The position numbers were made by a program, and so were the translations under genes. From UHGV virus genome UHGV-0265340: a DNA stretch of 13,709 nucleotides; one strand, 5' to 3'. This DNA comes from a virus. This document shows, piece after piece, positions 7,284 through 13,630 of the stretch. Position 1 is the first letter of the stretch; each line of letters starts with the position of its first letter. The notes under the pieces were generated by a model. It did no database searches. It saw only the letters and a program-made list of their open reading frames with translations, and had not been told where the DNA came from.

Positions 7284-8054
7284 ATGGTTAAAAAAGATGA
7301 ACTAAAAGAAGCGTTCTCAAAGAGACTACTACAGGCATTATTAGATGCAGGTGTGGGCGGACGCGGTCAGGCTAAGCGGATTCAGAATGCAATGAAACTG
7401 CGAGGCATTGATATCTCTGAACCGGGGATCTGGAAATGGCTTAATTCTGCATCAATTCCAGAAAAAACAAGTATTTTGGCACTTAGTGACTGGCTTTCCG
7501 TGAAGCCGGAGTGGTTGGAGTATGGCAGTAACGAGCCATCCGTAAAACAGCGACCTTCTATTCCAAACGAATCAGAATGGGGTTCCCTTGAAACTTGGGA
7601 CAGAAATACACAACTACGAGATGATGAAGTTGAGGTGCCATATCTGAAAGACATTGAGTTTGCATGCGGTGACGGAAGAGTTCATTGCGAAGATCATAAT
7701 GGTTTTAAATTACGCTTCTCAAAAGCAACCCTGCGCCGTGTCGGAGCTAACAGTGATGGTTCTGGTGTGCTTTGTTTTCCGGCTACTGGTGATAGCATGG
7801 AACCCGTGATACCAGATGGAACAACAATCGCAGTAGACACAAACAACAAACGTATTGTTGACGGCAAACTCTACGCCATCGCACAGCCTGGTGTCGGTGA
7901 TGAAAAACTGAAGCGTATAAAGCTATTGTACAGACGCCCCGGTGGAAAACTAATCATACGCAGTTATAACAGTGAAGAGTACCCTGACGAAGAAGCAGAT
8001 ACTCAAAGCGTGGAGATTATCGGAAAAGTTTTCTGGTATTCAGTTCTGCTTTAG
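7284..8054 (+). CDS. cI: CI-type prophage repressor (HTH + LexA-like S24 autopeptidase domain)
   Basis: 256-aa ORF; C-terminal S24 motifs (GDSMEP, downstream catalytic Lys region KLKRIK); N-terminal DNA-binding region; no SD, start directly downstream of the -10 (leaderless). Confidence 0.92.
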   Translation: MVKKDELKEAFSKRLLQALLDAGVGGRGQAKRIQNAMKLRGIDISEPGIWKWLNSASIPEKTSILALSDWLSVKPEWLEYGSNEPSVKQRPSIPNESEWGSLETWDRNTQLRDDEVEVPYLKDIEFACGDGRVHCEDHNGFKLRFSKATLRRVGANSDGSGVLCFPATGDSMEPVIPDGTTIAVDTNNKRIVDGKLYAIAQPGVGDEKLKRIKLLYRRPGGKLIIRSYNSEEYPDEEADTQSVEIIGKVFWYSVLL

Positions 8055-8215: not shown

Positions 8216-8258
8216 TTAACTTTAGGTTATTGACTAACACTAACCAACAGTTAATAAT
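8216..8258 (+). promoter_or_regulatory. pL/oL-like promoter-operator
   Basis: TTAACTTTAGGTTAT (8216-8230) matches the oR palindrome at 12 of 15 positions; -35 TTGACT (8230-8235), 16-17-bp spacer, -10 TAATAAT (8252-8258); AT-rich; directly upstream of nutL and N. Confidence 0.5.
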
Positions 8259-8304: not shown

Positions 8305-8350
8305 GCTCTTTAAACAACGTCGAACACTCGACTACGTGGCTGAAAAGCCA
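8305..8350 (+). promoter_or_regulatory. nutL-like site (boxA, small hairpin, boxB)
   Basis: boxA-like GCTCTTTAAACAA (8305-8317); hairpin GTCGA-ACAC-TCGAC (8319-8332); boxB-like TGGC-TGAAAA-GCCA (8337-8350); about 100 nt upstream of the N-like ATG. Confidence 0.55.
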
Positions 8351-8450: not shown

Positions 8451-8723
8451 ATGTCCAGAAAGACAGAATTTAAAGGAACCGCAACTTCCCGCCGCAGAGC
8501 ACACCGGGCTGAGCTTCAGAGTCTGGAGGCATCAAGCGCTGATAAACTGCACCGCCCCACGCCTTCACGGGTGTACTTACAGTGCAAGCGCAAAGCCGCA
8601 ATGCGAGCTGAAGTAGTCACGATAACGACATTAACCAGAAAATATGAAGGCTCCACTTGTCTTCCAAACACTGCACTTTACGCAGCTGGCTATCGCAAAT
8701 CCGGAACAATAACAGCGAGGTGA
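8451..8723 (+). CDS. N: N-like transcription antiterminator (P22 gp24 / lambda N family)
   Basis: 90-aa ORF from ATG 8451 (SD GGAGAGA 8439-8445); arginine-rich motif TSRRRAHRAELQ resembling the lambda N ARM (QTRRRERRAEKQ); C-terminus LPNTALYAAGYRKSGTITAR parallels P22 gp24 as recalled; matching nut sites on both operons. Confidence 0.8.
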   Translation: MSRKTEFKGTATSRRRAHRAELQSLEASSADKLHRPTPSRVYLQCKRKAAMRAEVVTITTLTRKYEGSTCLPNTALYAAGYRKSGTITAR

Positions 8724-8726
8724 TTG

Positions 8727-9440
8727 ATGACCACACCTTCAGTTTTGCCGCAAAAATTATGGCGTCCGCTTGCAGAGATTAAAAACTTCGTTGAAAAAAT
8801 GCCTGATGGTGTTCGCCTTACGGAGGTTACAAAAAAAGTTAAGACGTTTGCCGAACTGTCAGGAAAAGAGAGAAACCAGCTCATAGATTTTATCGATAAA
8901 CGGGAAAGCATCATTGTATTTAAGGTCAGAAAAGAAGGTTCTGGTAACGGAGTAACCTTTTTCCGCCACAAAAAATATGGATATCCCAAACGGGAAGGAA
9001 ACGTCACAATCATTAAGGACCTTCAATCAAAATTATGTACCAGATGCGGGCAGACAAAATCAGTCAATGATTTTTATTCAGATGCCAGCAAGCGTGACGG
9101 GAGAGCCATTTATTGCAAGAAGTGCGAATCTGCAATGAAACGCTCACGCAGAGAATGCAACAAATTAATTCTGCAACAACAGGAACCTGAAATGAATAAC
9201 CTCAAAGCAGTTTCACCTTCACCAGAAATACTCAGAAAACAGGCTGAAGAATTGCTGAAAGCCGCCGAAATTGCGGAGAAAAAACGCCAGGAAGATGATG
9301 CATTCAACAAAAAACTTGCGCCCTTAAAACTTGAAATTCTTCAGGCCGCCGGAAAAATGCAGCTTAAACTGGACGAATTCATCGACTGTATGGATGAAAT
9401 GAATAAAGCAGTTCAGAAGCTTAAAGAGCTGACCGCCTGA
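8727..9440 (+). CDS. Hypothetical protein with CxxC...CxxC zinc ribbon and coiled-coil-like C-terminus
   Basis: 237-aa ORF from ATG 8727 (SD GAGG 8717-8720, 6-nt spacing; starts 4 bp after the N stop); CTRCG...CKKCE motif; K/E-rich helical C-terminus; AT-rich codon usage typical of phage cargo; no family recognised. Confidence 0.75.
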   Translation: MTTPSVLPQKLWRPLAEIKNFVEKMPDGVRLTEVTKKVKTFAELSGKERNQLIDFIDKRESIIVFKVRKEGSGNGVTFFRHKKYGYPKREGNVTIIKDLQSKLCTRCGQTKSVNDFYSDASKRDGRAIYCKKCESAMKRSRRECNKLILQQQEPEMNNLKAVSPSPEILRKQAEELLKAAEIAEKKRQEDDAFNKKLAPLKLEILQAAGKMQLKLDEFIDCMDEMNKAVQKLKELTA

Positions 9441-9471
9441 TATTAATAAATTGCAACTACCGGAGTTAACT

Positions 9472-9831
9472 ATGAACGAAACAGAACTGAAGCACATTAT
9501 CGCCCTGCTTCTGGAAGATGCCGGACAGGTTTATCGACTTAGCCCAAATTCCGCAACGCTGACACGCATCCAGATGGCAGAAAAAGCACTGAAACAGGAT
9601 AATGAAAACAGCGCATCCGAAGTTGATGCTAATGGTGAAAATGAAGTAATAGAAATAAACAGCAATATCAGCGACAGTTGCATCGCTTACAGCCACCAAA
9701 TAATTCGTGTAAGTGCAAGAATAATGGAAGTGATGGCAAGTGAGCTTGAAAAGAACAACATCAAGCCCACTGATTGTTGTTTAAGAACCGTAATGAACGT
9801 TATTTATTACTCGATGTTCCGAAGCCGCTAA
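9472..9831 (+). CDS. Hypothetical protein (119 aa)
   Basis: ATG 9472 with SD GGAG (9462-9465); acidic, AT-rich; no family recognised; 3' end overlaps the convergent ORF 9800-10009. Confidence 0.65.
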   Translation: MNETELKHIIALLLEDAGQVYRLSPNSATLTRIQMAEKALKQDNENSASEVDANGENEVIEINSNISDSCIAYSHQIIRVSARIMEVMASELEKNNIKPTDCCLRTVMNVIYYSMFRSR

Positions 9832-10009
9832 CAGCGTCGAGTTTTTCATTAAAAAATGATTCAAATGCATCGTAAAATACGGCAATAGCACCGCCCTTAT
9901 CTACCGCGGCAGGAACTGCCTTTTGAGGTATATCTTTCTCCCTGAATTGTGTGTTGTAGGTATCGACAGCCAGCCGCATCAGAAACATCACTTTTTCTTC
10001 TTGTGTCAT
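9800..10009 (-). CDS. Hypothetical small protein (69 aa), convergent with the upstream gene
   Basis: ATG at 10009 preceded on the minus strand by a strong SD (AAGGAGAG, about 7-nt spacing) and a structured GC-rich leader; overlaps the 3' end of 9472-9831 by 32 bp. Confidence 0.45.
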   Translation of the reverse strand: MTQEEKVMFLMRLAVDTYNTQFREKDIPQKAVPAAVDKGGAIAVFYDAFESFFNEKLDAVSGFGTSSNK

Positions 10010-10248
10010 AAATTCACTCTCCTTACGGGGTTTGTAGTTGAGGAGTTCTCCACGGGTGAGGTGGAGATCGTGCGCCGGACACGGGTAAGTTCCGGCACTC
10101 TCAGTTTACTGAACAGACATTACCCTGAAAGCCAGGGTACAACACGAAAGTGCACGGCGAAGACTCTTTCCCATTGAAGGCTTGTCGTTAGATTTCTTCG
10201 ACCGTGCGCTTCCGGTTGTGAATAACAACATTGCTGTGTGTAGCCCTT

Positions 10249-10290
10249 GGCGGACATCGGTTTGCCGATTGCTGATGTCCGCCCTTTTTA
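10249..10290 (+). terminator. Strong intrinsic terminator with no adjacent upstream CDS
   Basis: Stem GGCGGACATC (10249-10258) / GATGTCCGCC (10274-10283) with an inner ATCGG/CCGAT pairing, followed by CTTTTT (10284-10289); nearest upstream plus-strand CDS ends at 9831. Confidence 0.6.
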
Positions 10291-10465
10291 AAGTGAATTT
10301 TGTGATGCGGTGAATGCGGCTATGCGCACGCGGAACAGTTAAACCGACAGGATGTCACGGAAAGTCATCGTCCCCTGACCCGGCGTTAGTTGTTAACTGG
10401 TTAACGTCACCTGGAGGCACCAGGCACCGCATCAACAAAGTTCATTTGTGAAAATGGAGATAATT

Positions 10466-10687
10466 ATGATTGCTCATCACTTCGGAACTGATGAAATACC
10501 ACGTCAGTGCGTGACGCCTGGCGATTATGTTCTTCATGAAGGTCGGACATATATCGCTTCAGCAAACAATATTGAAAAGAGAAAACTCTATATTCGTAAC
10601 TTCACAACAAAAACATGCATTACCGACTGCATGATTAAAGTTTTCATCGGGCGCGATGGCTTACCCGTAAAAGCAGCGTCGTTGTGA
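10466..10687 (+). CDS. Hypothetical small protein (73 aa)
   Basis: ATG 10466 with SD GGAGA (10456-10460, 5-nt spacing); in-frame alternative ATG 10454 and GTG 10448; Cys-containing, AT-rich; no family recognised. Confidence 0.5.
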
Positions 10688-10770
10688 CGAGTAATAAAAT
10701 ACACCTTCCATATCTGTAACAGACAAGCCGAAATAAAACCGCATTAATTATCAATCACGGAAAAATCAAA

Positions 10771-11157
10771 ATGAAAGAGCTTGCGCAAAATGAAATATTT
10801 TCCGAAACCAGTCCTGATGCAATAAATGAACTCAAAGAAATTGCAGAACGCATCAGTAAAATATGCAAAGAATACAAAATCGACTTTGTATTTTCTTTTT
10901 CAGTGCTTACAGAAGTTGGAAATAACGAATATAAGGACAGCCGTTTTGTTTTATGTGGGTTAAATGGCAAAACACCAAGCCCATATATTCATGCTGCACG
11001 TGAAGTTGTCAGAAGCAACATTGGAGTACAACAAATCCATACACTTGCACAGGCTCTTGAGTTTGCAAGAGAAAATTCTGAGTGCGACTGCCCTGAATGC
11101 CAGCACGAAAAGGGAAAAACAACTCACAAAACAGCAAACCAGGCAACCTTCCACTGA
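10771..11157 (+). CDS. Hypothetical protein (128 aa) with C-terminal Cys cluster
   Basis: ATG 10771; helical acidic N-terminus; CDCPECQHEKGK near the C-terminus; very AT-rich; no family recognised. Confidence 0.65.
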   Translation: MKELAQNEIFSETSPDAINELKEIAERISKICKEYKIDFVFSFSVLTEVGNNEYKDSRFVLCGLNGKTPSPYIHAAREVVRSNIGVQQIHTLAQALEFARENSECDCPECQHEKGKTTHKTANQATFH

Positions 11158-11264
11158 AATAAAAATCCGGCAGCGCAGGCTACCGGATTTCTCCCTGCGT
11201 CACCGTATTCGGAGAAATCAGACAAAGGGCCGCTAATTCTAATCCAGCCAGAGGTTTAAATACA

Positions 11265-13337
11265 ATGAGCGCTGATAAACAGACTTTTGCACTACACTGC
11301 GAAGCAAAAAACGATAAAGTCAGAAAACGCCTTGGCATCAAAGGCGGTTTTTTCTGGACCGAGGCCAGAAAACTTTCTGTCGCAGTTTCCCGCTGCATTG
11401 CAGCCATGGACGATGCAGGCTACGACGAGGATGATTTCAAAAAACCCGTTCGCGTAAATTTCCCCGTCGTGAATGACCTTCCACCGGAAGGCGTGTTTGA
11501 TACTGAATTCTGCAACCGCTATGAAAAAGGCGGTAACGATGGCATCACCATGATGGCTATCCCCTTCGATGACAACATCAACGGTGAAGATGCCACAACT
11601 GCTGGCGATGACAACGATAACCTGGACGGAACTATTCCGGATGATGTGGAGAAAAGCGAATCCCCGGACAGCGACGATGACTGTTCTGAGTGTGAAATTC
11701 CCGTCGCCACTCTGAGCCTTACTCATCGCTTCCTTCACCTCTTCTTATTCAGCAAAGATGAAGATGGAAAATACCGGCATCATGCCACACCAGAACAACG
11801 CAATAACGTGATCCGTATGGAGATGGACACAGAGGACAGTTACCTTCAGAGCCTGCTTACTGCTGTGCGCGCCGCGCATCATGAACTGGATAAACTGACG
11901 AACTATCACCTTAGTCGCCTGGCTGAATCTGTAGGGAAAGCATTCCCCCACTCTGCAAATCATCGCATCAGCCCGGCTGAATTCGACAAGTTCATTTCCA
12001 CCTGGATGAAAACTGACTACCTTGATCAGGGCCTGCTGACAAAAGAATGGCAGAACGGAAATTATGTTTCAGGCATTACCCGTACGCCTTCCGGTGCTAA
12101 CGCTGGCGGCGGAAATATTACCGATCGTGGTGAAGGATTCAAACATGATAAGACATCACTCGCACGAGATGTAGCCACCGGCGTTCTGGCCCGTTCAATG
12201 GATGTGGATATTTATAACCTGCACCCAGCACACGCAAAACGCGTTGAAGAAATCGTGTCAGAGAATAAGCCGCCCTTTTCTGTTTTTCGCGACAAATTTA
12301 TCGCCATGCCCGGTGGGCTGGATTATTCCCGCGCCATTGTGGTGGCTTCCGTGAAAGAAGCACCAATCGGCATTGAGGCCATCCCGGCACGCGTGACTGA
12401 ATATCTCAACAAAGTGTTGACCGAAACCGATCACGCTAACCCGGATCCGGAAATCGTGGAAATTGCCTGCGGTCGCTCATCAGCACCGATGCCGCAGCGC
12501 GGAACAGCAGAAGGAAAACATGGCGATGAAGAAAAGCAACAAGCATCGGACACAATGGCTAATGAACAGGCAGCGCCTGAATCAGTGGAAGAAATTCCAG
12601 TTAAACATAATGAGGACACGCAATCACTGGAAAATGTCTCATCTGTAGAAACGAAATACCAGGAACTGAGGGAGGAACTCAATAAAGCCAGGGAAAACAT
12701 CCCCCCAAAAAATCCAGTCGATGCCGACAAATTACTGGCTGCCTCGCGTGGAGAATTCGTTGAAGGCATCAGTAACCCTGCTGATCCGAAGTGGGTGAAG
12801 GGGATCCAGACTCGCGACACTGAGGACCAGAATCAGTCCAAAGTGGAACAAATTGCCCCAGAAGCGGGACAAAACAGCCCGGATACGCAACAAAACGGGC
12901 CAGAAGAGCAACAGCCAGGGCCAGTAGCGCAACCGGAGCTGGAAAAAAACTGCCGCGTCTGTGGTCAGACTGGCGGGGGTAACTGCCCTGACTGTAGTGC
13001 GGTAATGGGCGATAGCACTTACACAGAAACTTTTGGAGAAAATGACGCCGCTGATGGAGAAGACTCAGCACAAACTGAGGAGAAGATCATTCAGGAAAAC
13101 TCTGTTGATGCCGCTCAGGAGGGCGAAACCGTTGTTCAGAACGAGCCAGGCAGTGATACGTCCGGCGATGACGCCAATTCTGAGCCAGTAACTCTCGACT
13201 GGAAAAGACAGCTCGTGATTGCCGCCGTCTATGGTTTGTGCGCCAACCCCGCATGTATAGCCACAGCGCCAGCAATCCCTGATATCGCCATCATGATTGC
13301 CAACAGGCTTGAAAATTTCGGAGGTGATAAATCATGA
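11265..13337 (+). CDS. Large acidic protein resembling the non-catalytic N-terminal region of RecE (exonuclease VIII) family prophage proteins; nuclease domain apparently absent
   Basis: 690-aa ORF from ATG 11265 (GAGG 11251-11254); D/E-rich low-complexity stretches; CRVCGQ...CPDC motif; segments such as NFPVVNDLP and [16 protein letters not shown]...[16 protein letters not shown]...[10 protein letters not shown]...[12 protein letters not shown] match my recollection of the Rac RecE N-terminal region (unverified); stop overlaps the gam ATG (ATGA 13334-13337). Confidence 0.8.
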
Positions 13338-13630
13338 ATGCCTGGCTTATCCCCGATCGCATTGAAGAGCAGTCATGGGCACGACACTACCAGCAAATTG
13401 CCCGTGAAGAAACTGAAGCTGAGCTGGCAGACGACCTGGAAAAAGGTCTGCCCCAACACCTGTTTGAATCGCTATGCATCGATAATCTGCAACGTCACGG
13501 GGCCAGCAAAAAAGCTATTTCCCGTGCATTTGATGACGATGTCGATTTTCAGGAACGCATGGCAGAACACATCCGCTACATGGCTGAAACCATCGCCCGT
13601 CACCAAATTAATATTGATTCAGAGGTATAA
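13334..13630 (+). CDS. gam: Gam host-nuclease (RecBCD) inhibitor, lambda type
   Basis: 98-aa ORF almost colinear and near-identical to the short (GamS) form of lambda Gam as recalled ([44 protein letters not shown]...[23 protein letters not shown]). Confidence 0.95.

Follow-up and report, generated by a model that had tools for sequence, protein, structure and literature searches.

The Rac prophage of Escherichia coli K-12 encodes KilR, a small division inhibitor that disrupts Z-rings, is suppressed in its toxicity by extra FtsZ and, at high dose, also mislocalizes MreB and rounds the cells (PMC12482147, PMC5793797). The length of a C-terminal tail of ~12 residues is critical for this toxicity, and the protein has no sequence similarity to the Kil protein of phage lambda, from which it differs further in being independent of ZipA (PMC12482147). 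In K-12, kilR is silenced by Rho/NusG via a region equivalent to the kilR leader discussed below (PMC5793797, PMC12482147) and is released when OxyS lowers NusG (PMC5793797), while its 5′ untranslated region contains a small RNA, KilS, that has been verified by northern blot (PMC8175672). KilR has also been associated with outcome in O157:H7 infections (PMC12711010). Here we analyze a 13,709-nucleotide (nt) stretch of viral DNA, UHGV-0265340 (hereafter the window), and in particular its positions 10466 to 11157, where two small open reading frames (ORFs) follow a terminator. An original prediction from the sequence alone had described them as an AT-rich two-gene cassette upstream of a recombination module and had suggested that they might be functional analogues of the lambda CIII protease inhibitor or the Kil division inhibitor, or else independent cargo. 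Our results indicate that the region is very probably no self-contained cassette but a pair of neighbouring genes within the early-left (pL) operon, antiterminated by N, of a lambdoid prophage, the first gene encoding KilR and the second a real orphan protein.

The first ORF (ORF1; plus strand, ATG 10466 to TGA 10687, 73 amino acids (aa)) can be firmly identified by sequence comparison as KilR, the Rac-type division inhibitor, and hence as a known protein rather than a new analogue. It aligns without gaps to K-12 KilR (b1352) with 66 of 73 residues identical (90%), and it matches both the NCBIfam model NF008465, “FtsZ inhibitor protein”, at 154.9 bits against a cut-off of 92 (residues 1–72 on profile positions 1–72 of 73) and phrog_294, “Kil protein for bacterial septation inhibition”, with E = 8e-36. 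Existing annotations agree, as the gene carries the label kil from the Prokaryotic Genome Annotation Pipeline (PGAP) in loci 99.6% identical over window positions 10300–11260 (E. coli O104:H4 and others) and the label Kil in the record of phage PhiR5_2, and ORF1 orthologues carry PF27398:KilR, a family that is absent from the Pfam copy we used, which accounts for the lack of a Pfam match for ORF1 itself. The ratio of nonsynonymous to synonymous substitution rates (dN/dS) across kilR is 0.03–0.13. Of the two ribosome-binding sites that had been considered plausible, that of ORF1 stands, with a GGAG Shine-Dalgarno sequence at 10456–10459, 6 nt before the ATG. The product differs from K-12 KilR by seven substitutions, including F51C, R55C and a C-terminal change from AESW to AASL, and its C-terminal tail of ~12 residues is intact, the protein being 73 aa long as in K-12 and aligned to the last residue. 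The two cysteines of ORF1, C51 and C55 in place of the F51 and R55 of K-12, are specific to this allele and not a feature of the family.

Given its close homology with the K-12 protein, the window KilR would block Z-ring assembly via FtsZ and, at higher dose, also mislocalize MreB, so that either prophage induction or relaxed Rho/NusG silencing would lead to KilR synthesis and bring both division and elongation to a stop. In the lysogen, kilR would be blocked by CI at pL, by a KilS-like terminator at 10249–10289 and by Rho/NusG termination in the leader, and on induction N-modified polymerase would read through the terminator. That CI, N antitermination and Rho/NusG control operate at the window locus is proposed from the examples of lambda and K-12 Rac.

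The expectation of functional analogues was therefore borne out insofar as ORF1 encodes a division inhibitor, but this is the already characterized KilR and not a novel analogue. The absence of visible similarity to lambda CIII or Kil is confirmed by direct comparison: the ORF1 and ORF2 proteins score about 0 bits against lambda Kil in BLASTP and phmmer and have no match to Pfam Lambda_Kil, and against lambda CIII both give negative phmmer bit scores, no BLASTP alignment and no family match. Direct comparison with lambda Ea10, Ral and Gam likewise reveals no similarity, P22 Kil yields no alignment, and the PADLOC defence models return no family at E ≤ 1 for either protein. An explanation in which one of the two proteins is a CIII-like FtsH inhibitor that shifts the lysis–lysogeny decision could draw on the adjacency of cIII and kil in the same operon of lambda, and on a conserved N-terminal amphipathic helix predicted for ORF2 in low-confidence models; it is, however, hardly credible given that ORF1 is firmly KilR and that ORF2, whose length exceeds that of CIII more than twofold, matches no Pfam, NCBIfam or PADLOC family above threshold and, within PHROGs, only phrog_2016. 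Nothing supports a protease-inhibitor role for either protein.

The second ORF (ORF2; plus strand, ATG 10771 to TGA 11157, 128 aa; 99% identical to RefSeq WP_000660961.1) is, on comparative sequence evidence, a real and conserved protein-coding orphan of the early operon. Its entire length (residues 1–128 of 128) matches phrog_2016, a family of unknown function, with E = 2.2e-78 and 261.8 bits; profile searches, which identified ORF1 as KilR, thus gave for ORF2 only this family. Inspection of related prophages shows both frames intact, and for ORF2 this holds in 16 of 16 extracted loci despite up to 41% amino-acid divergence, with all insertions and deletions in-frame. The overall dN/dS of ORF2 is 0.19–0.61, with dS reaching 0.99, and falls to 0.07 for codons 1–35 in comparison with the two most divergent loci, while the blocks DFVFSFS...YKDSR and SPYIHAA are invariant. 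A promoter scan of the spacer between kilR and ORF2 found no promoter of ORF2's own, and we infer that ORF2 is expressed with the pL operon by antiterminated read-through.

The distribution of ORF2 is narrow. It is found in 81 of 5,426 complete E. coli genomes, in every case on the chromosome, and in six records of a phage collection, which represent four lambdoid phages of E. coli/Shigella, among them three that are named as Shiga toxin (Stx) phages; neither a one-genome-per-species collection nor a plasmid collection contains a match. An index of 5.8 billion proteins yields 26 ORF2 protein clusters, with identity down to 59% and with E. coli as the source of all those for which one is named. 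Among the matches listed ORF2 is annotated as “hypothetical protein”, and the regions inspected carry no pseudogene flag. One complete genome, NZ_CP045712.1, matches the ORF2 query at two places. A singleton from a Logan assembly (P0025) is the sole frameshifted member among the 26 clusters; it lacks the N-terminal ~30 residues, and its C-terminus reads into the downstream spacer.

These data also bear on whether ORF2 might be no gene at all and instead a chance or decaying frame in AT-rich spacer DNA. When the region is dinucleotide-shuffled, 6.6% of the shuffles contain a frame of 128 codons or more and 4.4% contain such a frame together with another of 73 codons or more, so that ORF length alone is no proof of genes and comparative evidence (homology, synteny and dN/dS) has to decide. 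The Shine-Dalgarno sequence of ORF2 is only a weak GGA (10759–10761, 9 nt upstream), in which respect the plausible ribosome-binding site claimed for it falls short, and it is kept in all homologous loci. No homologue was detected beyond the narrow group of E. coli/Shigella phages, and the structure is refractory to prediction. Against these points stand the intact frames in all 16 loci, the dN/dS values, the in-frame indels, the invariant blocks and a frameshift in just one singleton of the 26 clusters, which together make a non-coding ORF2 extremely improbable.

The notion of a two-gene cassette, on the other hand, did not survive comparison with related loci. In a three-way DNA alignment, the 83-nt spacer between kilR and ORF2 (10688..10770) aligns to the first ~55 nt of ydaE, a gene that is intact both in Rac and in phage phiSTEC1589-Stx1c, and is therefore a deletion remnant of ydaE; it is also the most variable of the flanks, at 59–96% identity. 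The ydaE deletion altered the last KilR residues as well (AESW to AASL), with protein length kept. The gene order is kilS-kilR-ydaE-racC-recE in K-12 Rac, which has no ORF2, and kilR-ydaE-ORF2-recE in phiSTEC1589-Stx1c, while other prophages have kilR-ydaE-recE or dicB-DUF1482-exonuclease. When a query reaching from kilR through ORF2 to the 5′ end of recE was used, some part of it matched in 2,540 genomes, and about two-thirds of the sampled rows show kilR followed by ydaE only. With kilR continuing into ydaE in most sampled loci, a ydaE remnant between the two genes, and ORF2 inherited together with the recE-like gene, kilR and ORF2 are by sequence two independent modules that are not inherited as a unit, and ORF2 fills a hypervariable accessory slot between a division inhibitor and a RecE-type gene.

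The same comparisons weigh on the idea that ORF2 is an antidote, chaperone or timer of KilR, with which it would form a functional toxin–modulator pair. The two genes are neighbours that share a strand and an operon, kilR is upstream of ORF2 in every locus read, and the high toxicity of KilR (PMC12482147) makes a modulator plausible. However, most sampled E. coli kilR loci continue with ydaE, K-12 Rac does without ORF2, ORF2 occurs in just those 81 genomes, and a ydaE gene or remnant lies between the two genes; moreover, silencing of K-12 kilR is transcriptional, via Rho/NusG. Divergence is uncoupled too, as in the same locus pairs KilR remains 94–100% and RecE 77–98% identical while ORF2 drops to 59–84%, with no sign of coevolution between KilR and ORF2. 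We consider such a pairing very unlikely.

A closer association connects ORF2 to the gene that follows it. The RecE-family gene (11265..13337, plus strand) encodes 690 aa, of which Pfam Exonuc_VIII covers residues 55–197 only, and residues 58–601 match K-12 RecE at 53.5% (tblastn), corresponding to the N-terminal and middle part of the K-12 protein only. No nuclease domain was detected in the RecE-like protein and a complete gam-bet-exo module follows, which renders the “exodeoxyribonuclease” activity of the annotation doubtful. In every locus read, ORF2 lies directly upstream of such a RecE-like gene of 682–700 aa, the two being separated by 107 nt of conserved sequence. The full RecE variant is present in 79 genomes, a near-equal co-occurrence with the 81 of ORF2, and both are present in the same six phage records. 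A locus of E. coli 2013C-3342 (L019, 3466–7679) encodes a chimeric RecE of 1,049 aa with a PD-(D/E)XK nuclease domain, in which a 551-nt segment is 98% identical to the middle of the window recE, and this chimera indicates recombination breakpoints inside recE. L019 has a Rac-type recE 5′ end with a racC-like gene upstream instead of ORF2; the recT next to this chimera is a pseudogene carrying an internal stop.

This linkage gives substance to the proposal that ORF2 is an accessory factor of the recombination module, whose binding or regulatory partner would be the nuclease-less RecE-like protein or Bet/Exo, in the way that P22 Arf stimulates recombination by Erf. Breakpoints fall between kilR and ORF2, where the ydaE remnant lies, and inside recE, as in L019, and the ORF2–recE junction has none; a recE 5′ end of the Rac type is accompanied by racC instead of ORF2; and the P22 record places arf (“Erf recombination cofactor”) between kil and erf. 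Yet ORF2 is unrelated in sequence to Arf, RacC and YdaE, linkage over ~100 nt is expected from adjacency alone, the occupants of the slot in other phages are unrelated and some prophages run from ydaE directly into recE. The GC content at third codon positions (GC3) is 0.31 in ORF2 and 0.49 in recE, a gap that suggests a different origin for the two genes. A recombination-accessory role is a serious but, in our estimation, unlikely explanation.

Features of the ORF2 protein itself point to a small, possibly metal-stabilized early protein. It is acidic (isoelectric point 5.7) and soluble, without a hydrophobic segment. The CDCPECQH cysteine cluster that had been highlighted is present, at residues 105–112; it is conserved only in part, as C107 and C110 (CxxC) are invariant, whereas C105 and H112 vary. 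C32, H74 and the C-terminal H128 are likewise invariant in full-length members, and the conserved cysteines and histidines make a metal or disulphide site plausible. Searches for relatives returned little beyond the family. In Pfam, NCBIfam and PADLOC, no model matches ORF2 above threshold, the weak matches being DUF1281_C, DUF711 and YnfU, the last with 13.3 bits against a cut-off of 36 for the zinc-binding family NF038384. A sequence-profile search of the PDB produced spurious matches only, the best being the designed protein Ika8 (E = 0.005, no significant stretch), and a Foldseek search of the PDB with the first ORF2 model gave nothing below E = 2, as expected from a poor model. An exhaustive hidden Markov model search of 1.8 billion representative proteins recovered the ORF2 family only and no remote relatives, and a profile search of six-frame translations of the fetched loci (Rac, Qin-type, ORF2 loci and L019) recovered ORF2 orthologues only. 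The one other match of the hidden Markov model search, P0027, is a repetitive hydrophobic protein that we judged spurious. Pairwise, ORF2 gives no BLASTP alignment with RacC (hhalign probability 0.08%), no sequence similarity to YdaE (0.15%) and an hhalign probability of 0.3% with P22 Arf. Our literature search found no paper on ORF2.

The divergence of ORF2 is concentrated in one part of the protein. At the nucleotide level, codons 81–104 are 57–62% identical in four of five loci, compared with 96–98% for the leader, 91–95% for kilR and 84–100% for the ORF2–recE spacer, and in the most divergent loci dS across ORF2 is ~0.85, roughly twice that of the flanks. The data do not establish positive selection on ORF2, as regional dN/dS is at most ~1 with small counts. 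The pattern is consistent with an exchange of old alleles between conserved flanks, the patch on the predicted helix being either relaxed or diversifying.

From these elements we tentatively propose that ORF2 is a small soluble early protein with a zinc or disulphide site formed by C107/C110 together with C32, H74 or H128, which would bind a host or defence target through its predicted, fast-evolving helix at ~81–104, thereby neutralizing it, and would constitute accessory cargo with no partnership with KilR; we give this proposal somewhat less than an even chance. It is based on the presence of unrelated accessory genes in the slot, on the modulation of the host by most lambdoid pL genes at that place, and on the foreign, AT-rich composition. 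The alternative of independent cargo, raised in the original prediction, is live for ORF2. A more ambitious version, which we regard as improbable, would make ORF2 the founder of a family of metal-stabilized early proteins of E. coli/Shigella lambdoid phages, Stx-converting ones included, whose helix at ~81–104 tracks a fast-evolving partner, either a host or defence target or the nuclease-less N-terminal part of RecE. Should it be true, and the partner be the N-terminal part of RecE, ORF2 would offer a first functional handle on that domain.

Several points pull against our interpretation of the two genes, among them the weak Shine-Dalgarno sequence of ORF2 and the shuffle frequencies given above. 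The phenotype of the window KilR allele is presumed from the K-12 protein in spite of the seven substitutions and two extra cysteines. ORF2 has no homologue of known function, which makes its proposed function pure inference, and AlphaFold models of ORF2 and of the divergent homologue P0018, with mean confidence (pLDDT) of 47.3 and 50.7, are unusable, so that metal binding and the variable helix remain predictions. Codons 81–104 have a dN/dS of 0.2–1.1, from small counts and never clearly above 1. Finally, the perfect linkage between ORF2 and the 5′ end of recE suits a recombination accessory at least as well as a protein that neutralizes a host or defence target.

Upstream of kilR, the terminator that had been noted in the sequence belongs to a homologue of the small RNA KilS (b4833) and forms its 3′ end. 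The homologue occupies 10198..10289 on the plus strand and aligns to K-12 positions 1418405–1418502. The KilS-like RNA folds with a free energy (ΔG) of −32.7 kcal/mol (z = −2.8), and its intrinsic terminator (10249–10289) consists of perfect 10-bp arms at 10249–10258 and 10274–10283, followed by C and TTTTT to 10289. Identity of the 176-nt kilR leader (10290..10465, plus strand) is 96–98% throughout the related loci, and a query that spans it has matches in 4,466 of the 5,426 complete E. coli genomes; the listed partial matches cover window positions 10300–10446, and some of them adjoin dicB in other prophages. The terminator hairpin scores 29.5 bits against Rfam DicF, below the cut-off of 48, and aligns to the DicF 3′ hairpin, with a different 5′ seed region, while the leader matches the full length of the Rfam STnc100 model at a likewise sub-threshold 31 bits. 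These similarities suggest that KilS/kilR and DicF/dicB share an ancestral small RNA–terminator–leader unit placed before unrelated division inhibitors.

The hairpin reported after ORF2 is also present, at 11163–11190, within the ORF2–recE intergenic region (11158..11264, plus strand), which holds in addition the recE ribosome-binding region and, at 84–100% identity, is more conserved than ORF2. The hairpin has 12-nt arms with 92% complementarity and a ΔG of −15.6 kcal/mol (z = −4.97 versus shuffles), while the wider 121-nt spacer folds no better than shuffles (z = −0.98). Its core, ATCCGGCAGC(G/A)CAGGCTACCGGAT, shows no change even in loci with an ORF2 of 59% identity, and this invariance of the stem leaves no covariation to draw on. 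We rejected a classical intrinsic terminator, as the T-tail is not conserved and a pattern scan did not call one. In Rac the equivalent place, right after racC, is taken by a different hairpin of 8 perfectly paired bp, with a GCGCAGGCTA segment in common. The hairpin could plausibly act in RNA stability or processing where the recE leader begins.

The wider context places both genes in an early-left operon between N and the recombination genes, a position that corresponds, as had been supposed, to that of the lambda cIII/kil-type genes. A pL-like sigma-70 promoter (8230..8258, plus strand) with TTGACT, a 17-nt spacer and AATAAT (10 of 12 matches in the promoter scan) lies 3′ of the cI gene (Peptidase_S24 by Pfam, 7284–8054) and of the cI terminator, and on the lambda paradigm the whole segment is presumed to be transcribed from this promoter. 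The promoter is followed by a nutL-like site read from the sequence (8305..8350, plus strand), comprising a boxA-like GCTCTTTAA at 8305–8313 and a boxB-like hairpin TGGCTGAAAAGCCA at 8337–8350, and by the N gene (plus strand, likely ATG start at 8451, to 8723; Pfam N_peptide, 90.2 bits), whose product of 90 aa has the same length in homologous loci. Two hypothetical early genes without a Pfam match come next (8724–9831, plus strand; listed ORFs of 238 and 126 aa, both with TTG starts). Relatives of these genes recur between N and kilR in ORF2-bearing prophages, with lengths of 237 aa (82 aa in one locus) and 118–119 or 220 aa. Downstream of recE, gam (13334..13630, plus strand; RecBCD inhibitor; Pfam Gam, 216 bits) is the first gene of the lambda Red-type gam-bet-exo module, and related prophages show the order N, two hypothetical genes, kil, ORF2, recE, gam, bet, exo, int. 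The prophage is apparently a complete lambdoid one of the N/CI type. Both ORFs, of 73 and 128 aa, are present as described, as are the upstream terminator and the low GC content, which is 0.423 in kilR, 0.325 in the spacer, 0.390 in ORF2 and 0.393 across the two-gene region, against 0.479 for the full window; 0.7% of 692-nt windows have a lower GC content than the two-gene region.

Two further features of the window lie outside this pair of genes. A 69-aa ORF on the minus strand (9800–10009) lies antisense to the pL operon in the interval that separates the hypothetical early genes from KilS; it corresponds to the hypothetical protein WP_000189936.1 of related prophages, matches nothing in Pfam and has the orientation of sieB in lambda and Rac. 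Near the start of the window, the minus strand of 1366–1564 carries three Rfam matches above the gathering score, namely C4 antisense RNA (1366–1449), isrK Hfq-binding RNA (1475–1551) and a c4 a1/b1 target element (1512–1564), and this cluster constitutes a module of the P1/P7 type for antisense immunity and antirepressor control within the lambdoid prophage.

The locus as a whole is ordinary and largely known. That KilR is lethal when Rho/NusG silencing fails and underlies OxyS-triggered division arrest is all published, and the window copy adds only an allele; ORF2 is a catalogued orphan and one of many conserved orphans of phage early operons. For annotation, the analysis shows that PGAP wrongly names kilR “cell division protein FtsZ”, that the terminator belongs to a KilS homologue, whose 3′ end it forms, and that the cassette is two modules. 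ORF2 nevertheless has its draws, namely a sharp variable patch, complete linkage to an unusual RecE-like gene and occurrence in pathogenic lineages (O104:H4) and Stx-converting phages, and it is easy to study, as PhiR5_2, with K-12 MG1655 as its recorded host, carries a 98%-identical copy.

Among known systems, the K-12 Rac locus resembles the window most directly in its KilR of 73 aa, its conserved leader, the KilS-type RNA and terminator upstream and the recE-type gene downstream. It differs in being a defective prophage in which ydaE overlaps the kilR stop codon, whereas the window belongs to an N/CI prophage with gam-bet-exo and retains only a ydaE remnant. The Qin-type DicB/DicF region is organized in a similar fashion, with a small RNA that has a homologous terminator hairpin and leader, followed by an inhibitor, a small accessory gene and an exonuclease gene. 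DicB itself, which acts through MinC, is a different protein from KilR. Lambda Kil and P22 Kil are, like KilR, small FtsZ-directed inhibitors encoded in the pL operon just upstream of recombination genes (PMC12482147, PMC5793797), but lambda Kil needs ZipA and causes filamentation only, in contrast to the ZipA-independent KilR and its rounding of cells via MreB (PMC12482147). The slot of ORF2, between division inhibitor and RecE-type gene, is taken elsewhere by RacC, by YdaE and, in the Qin-type prophage of O157:H7, by a DUF1482 gene. Like ORF2, the racC gene has a stable hairpin and the recE leader immediately behind it, and YdaE, annotated as zinc-binding, shares with ORF2 the presence of conserved cysteines and histidines, with no similarity in sequence or profile. 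P22 Arf, finally, occupies the corresponding slot between kil and the recombinase gene and sets a precedent for a recombination-accessory role; it differs in its length of 47 aa, compared with the 128 aa of ORF2, and in the recombination system that it accompanies, which is Erf in P22 and a RecE-like protein together with Red in the window.

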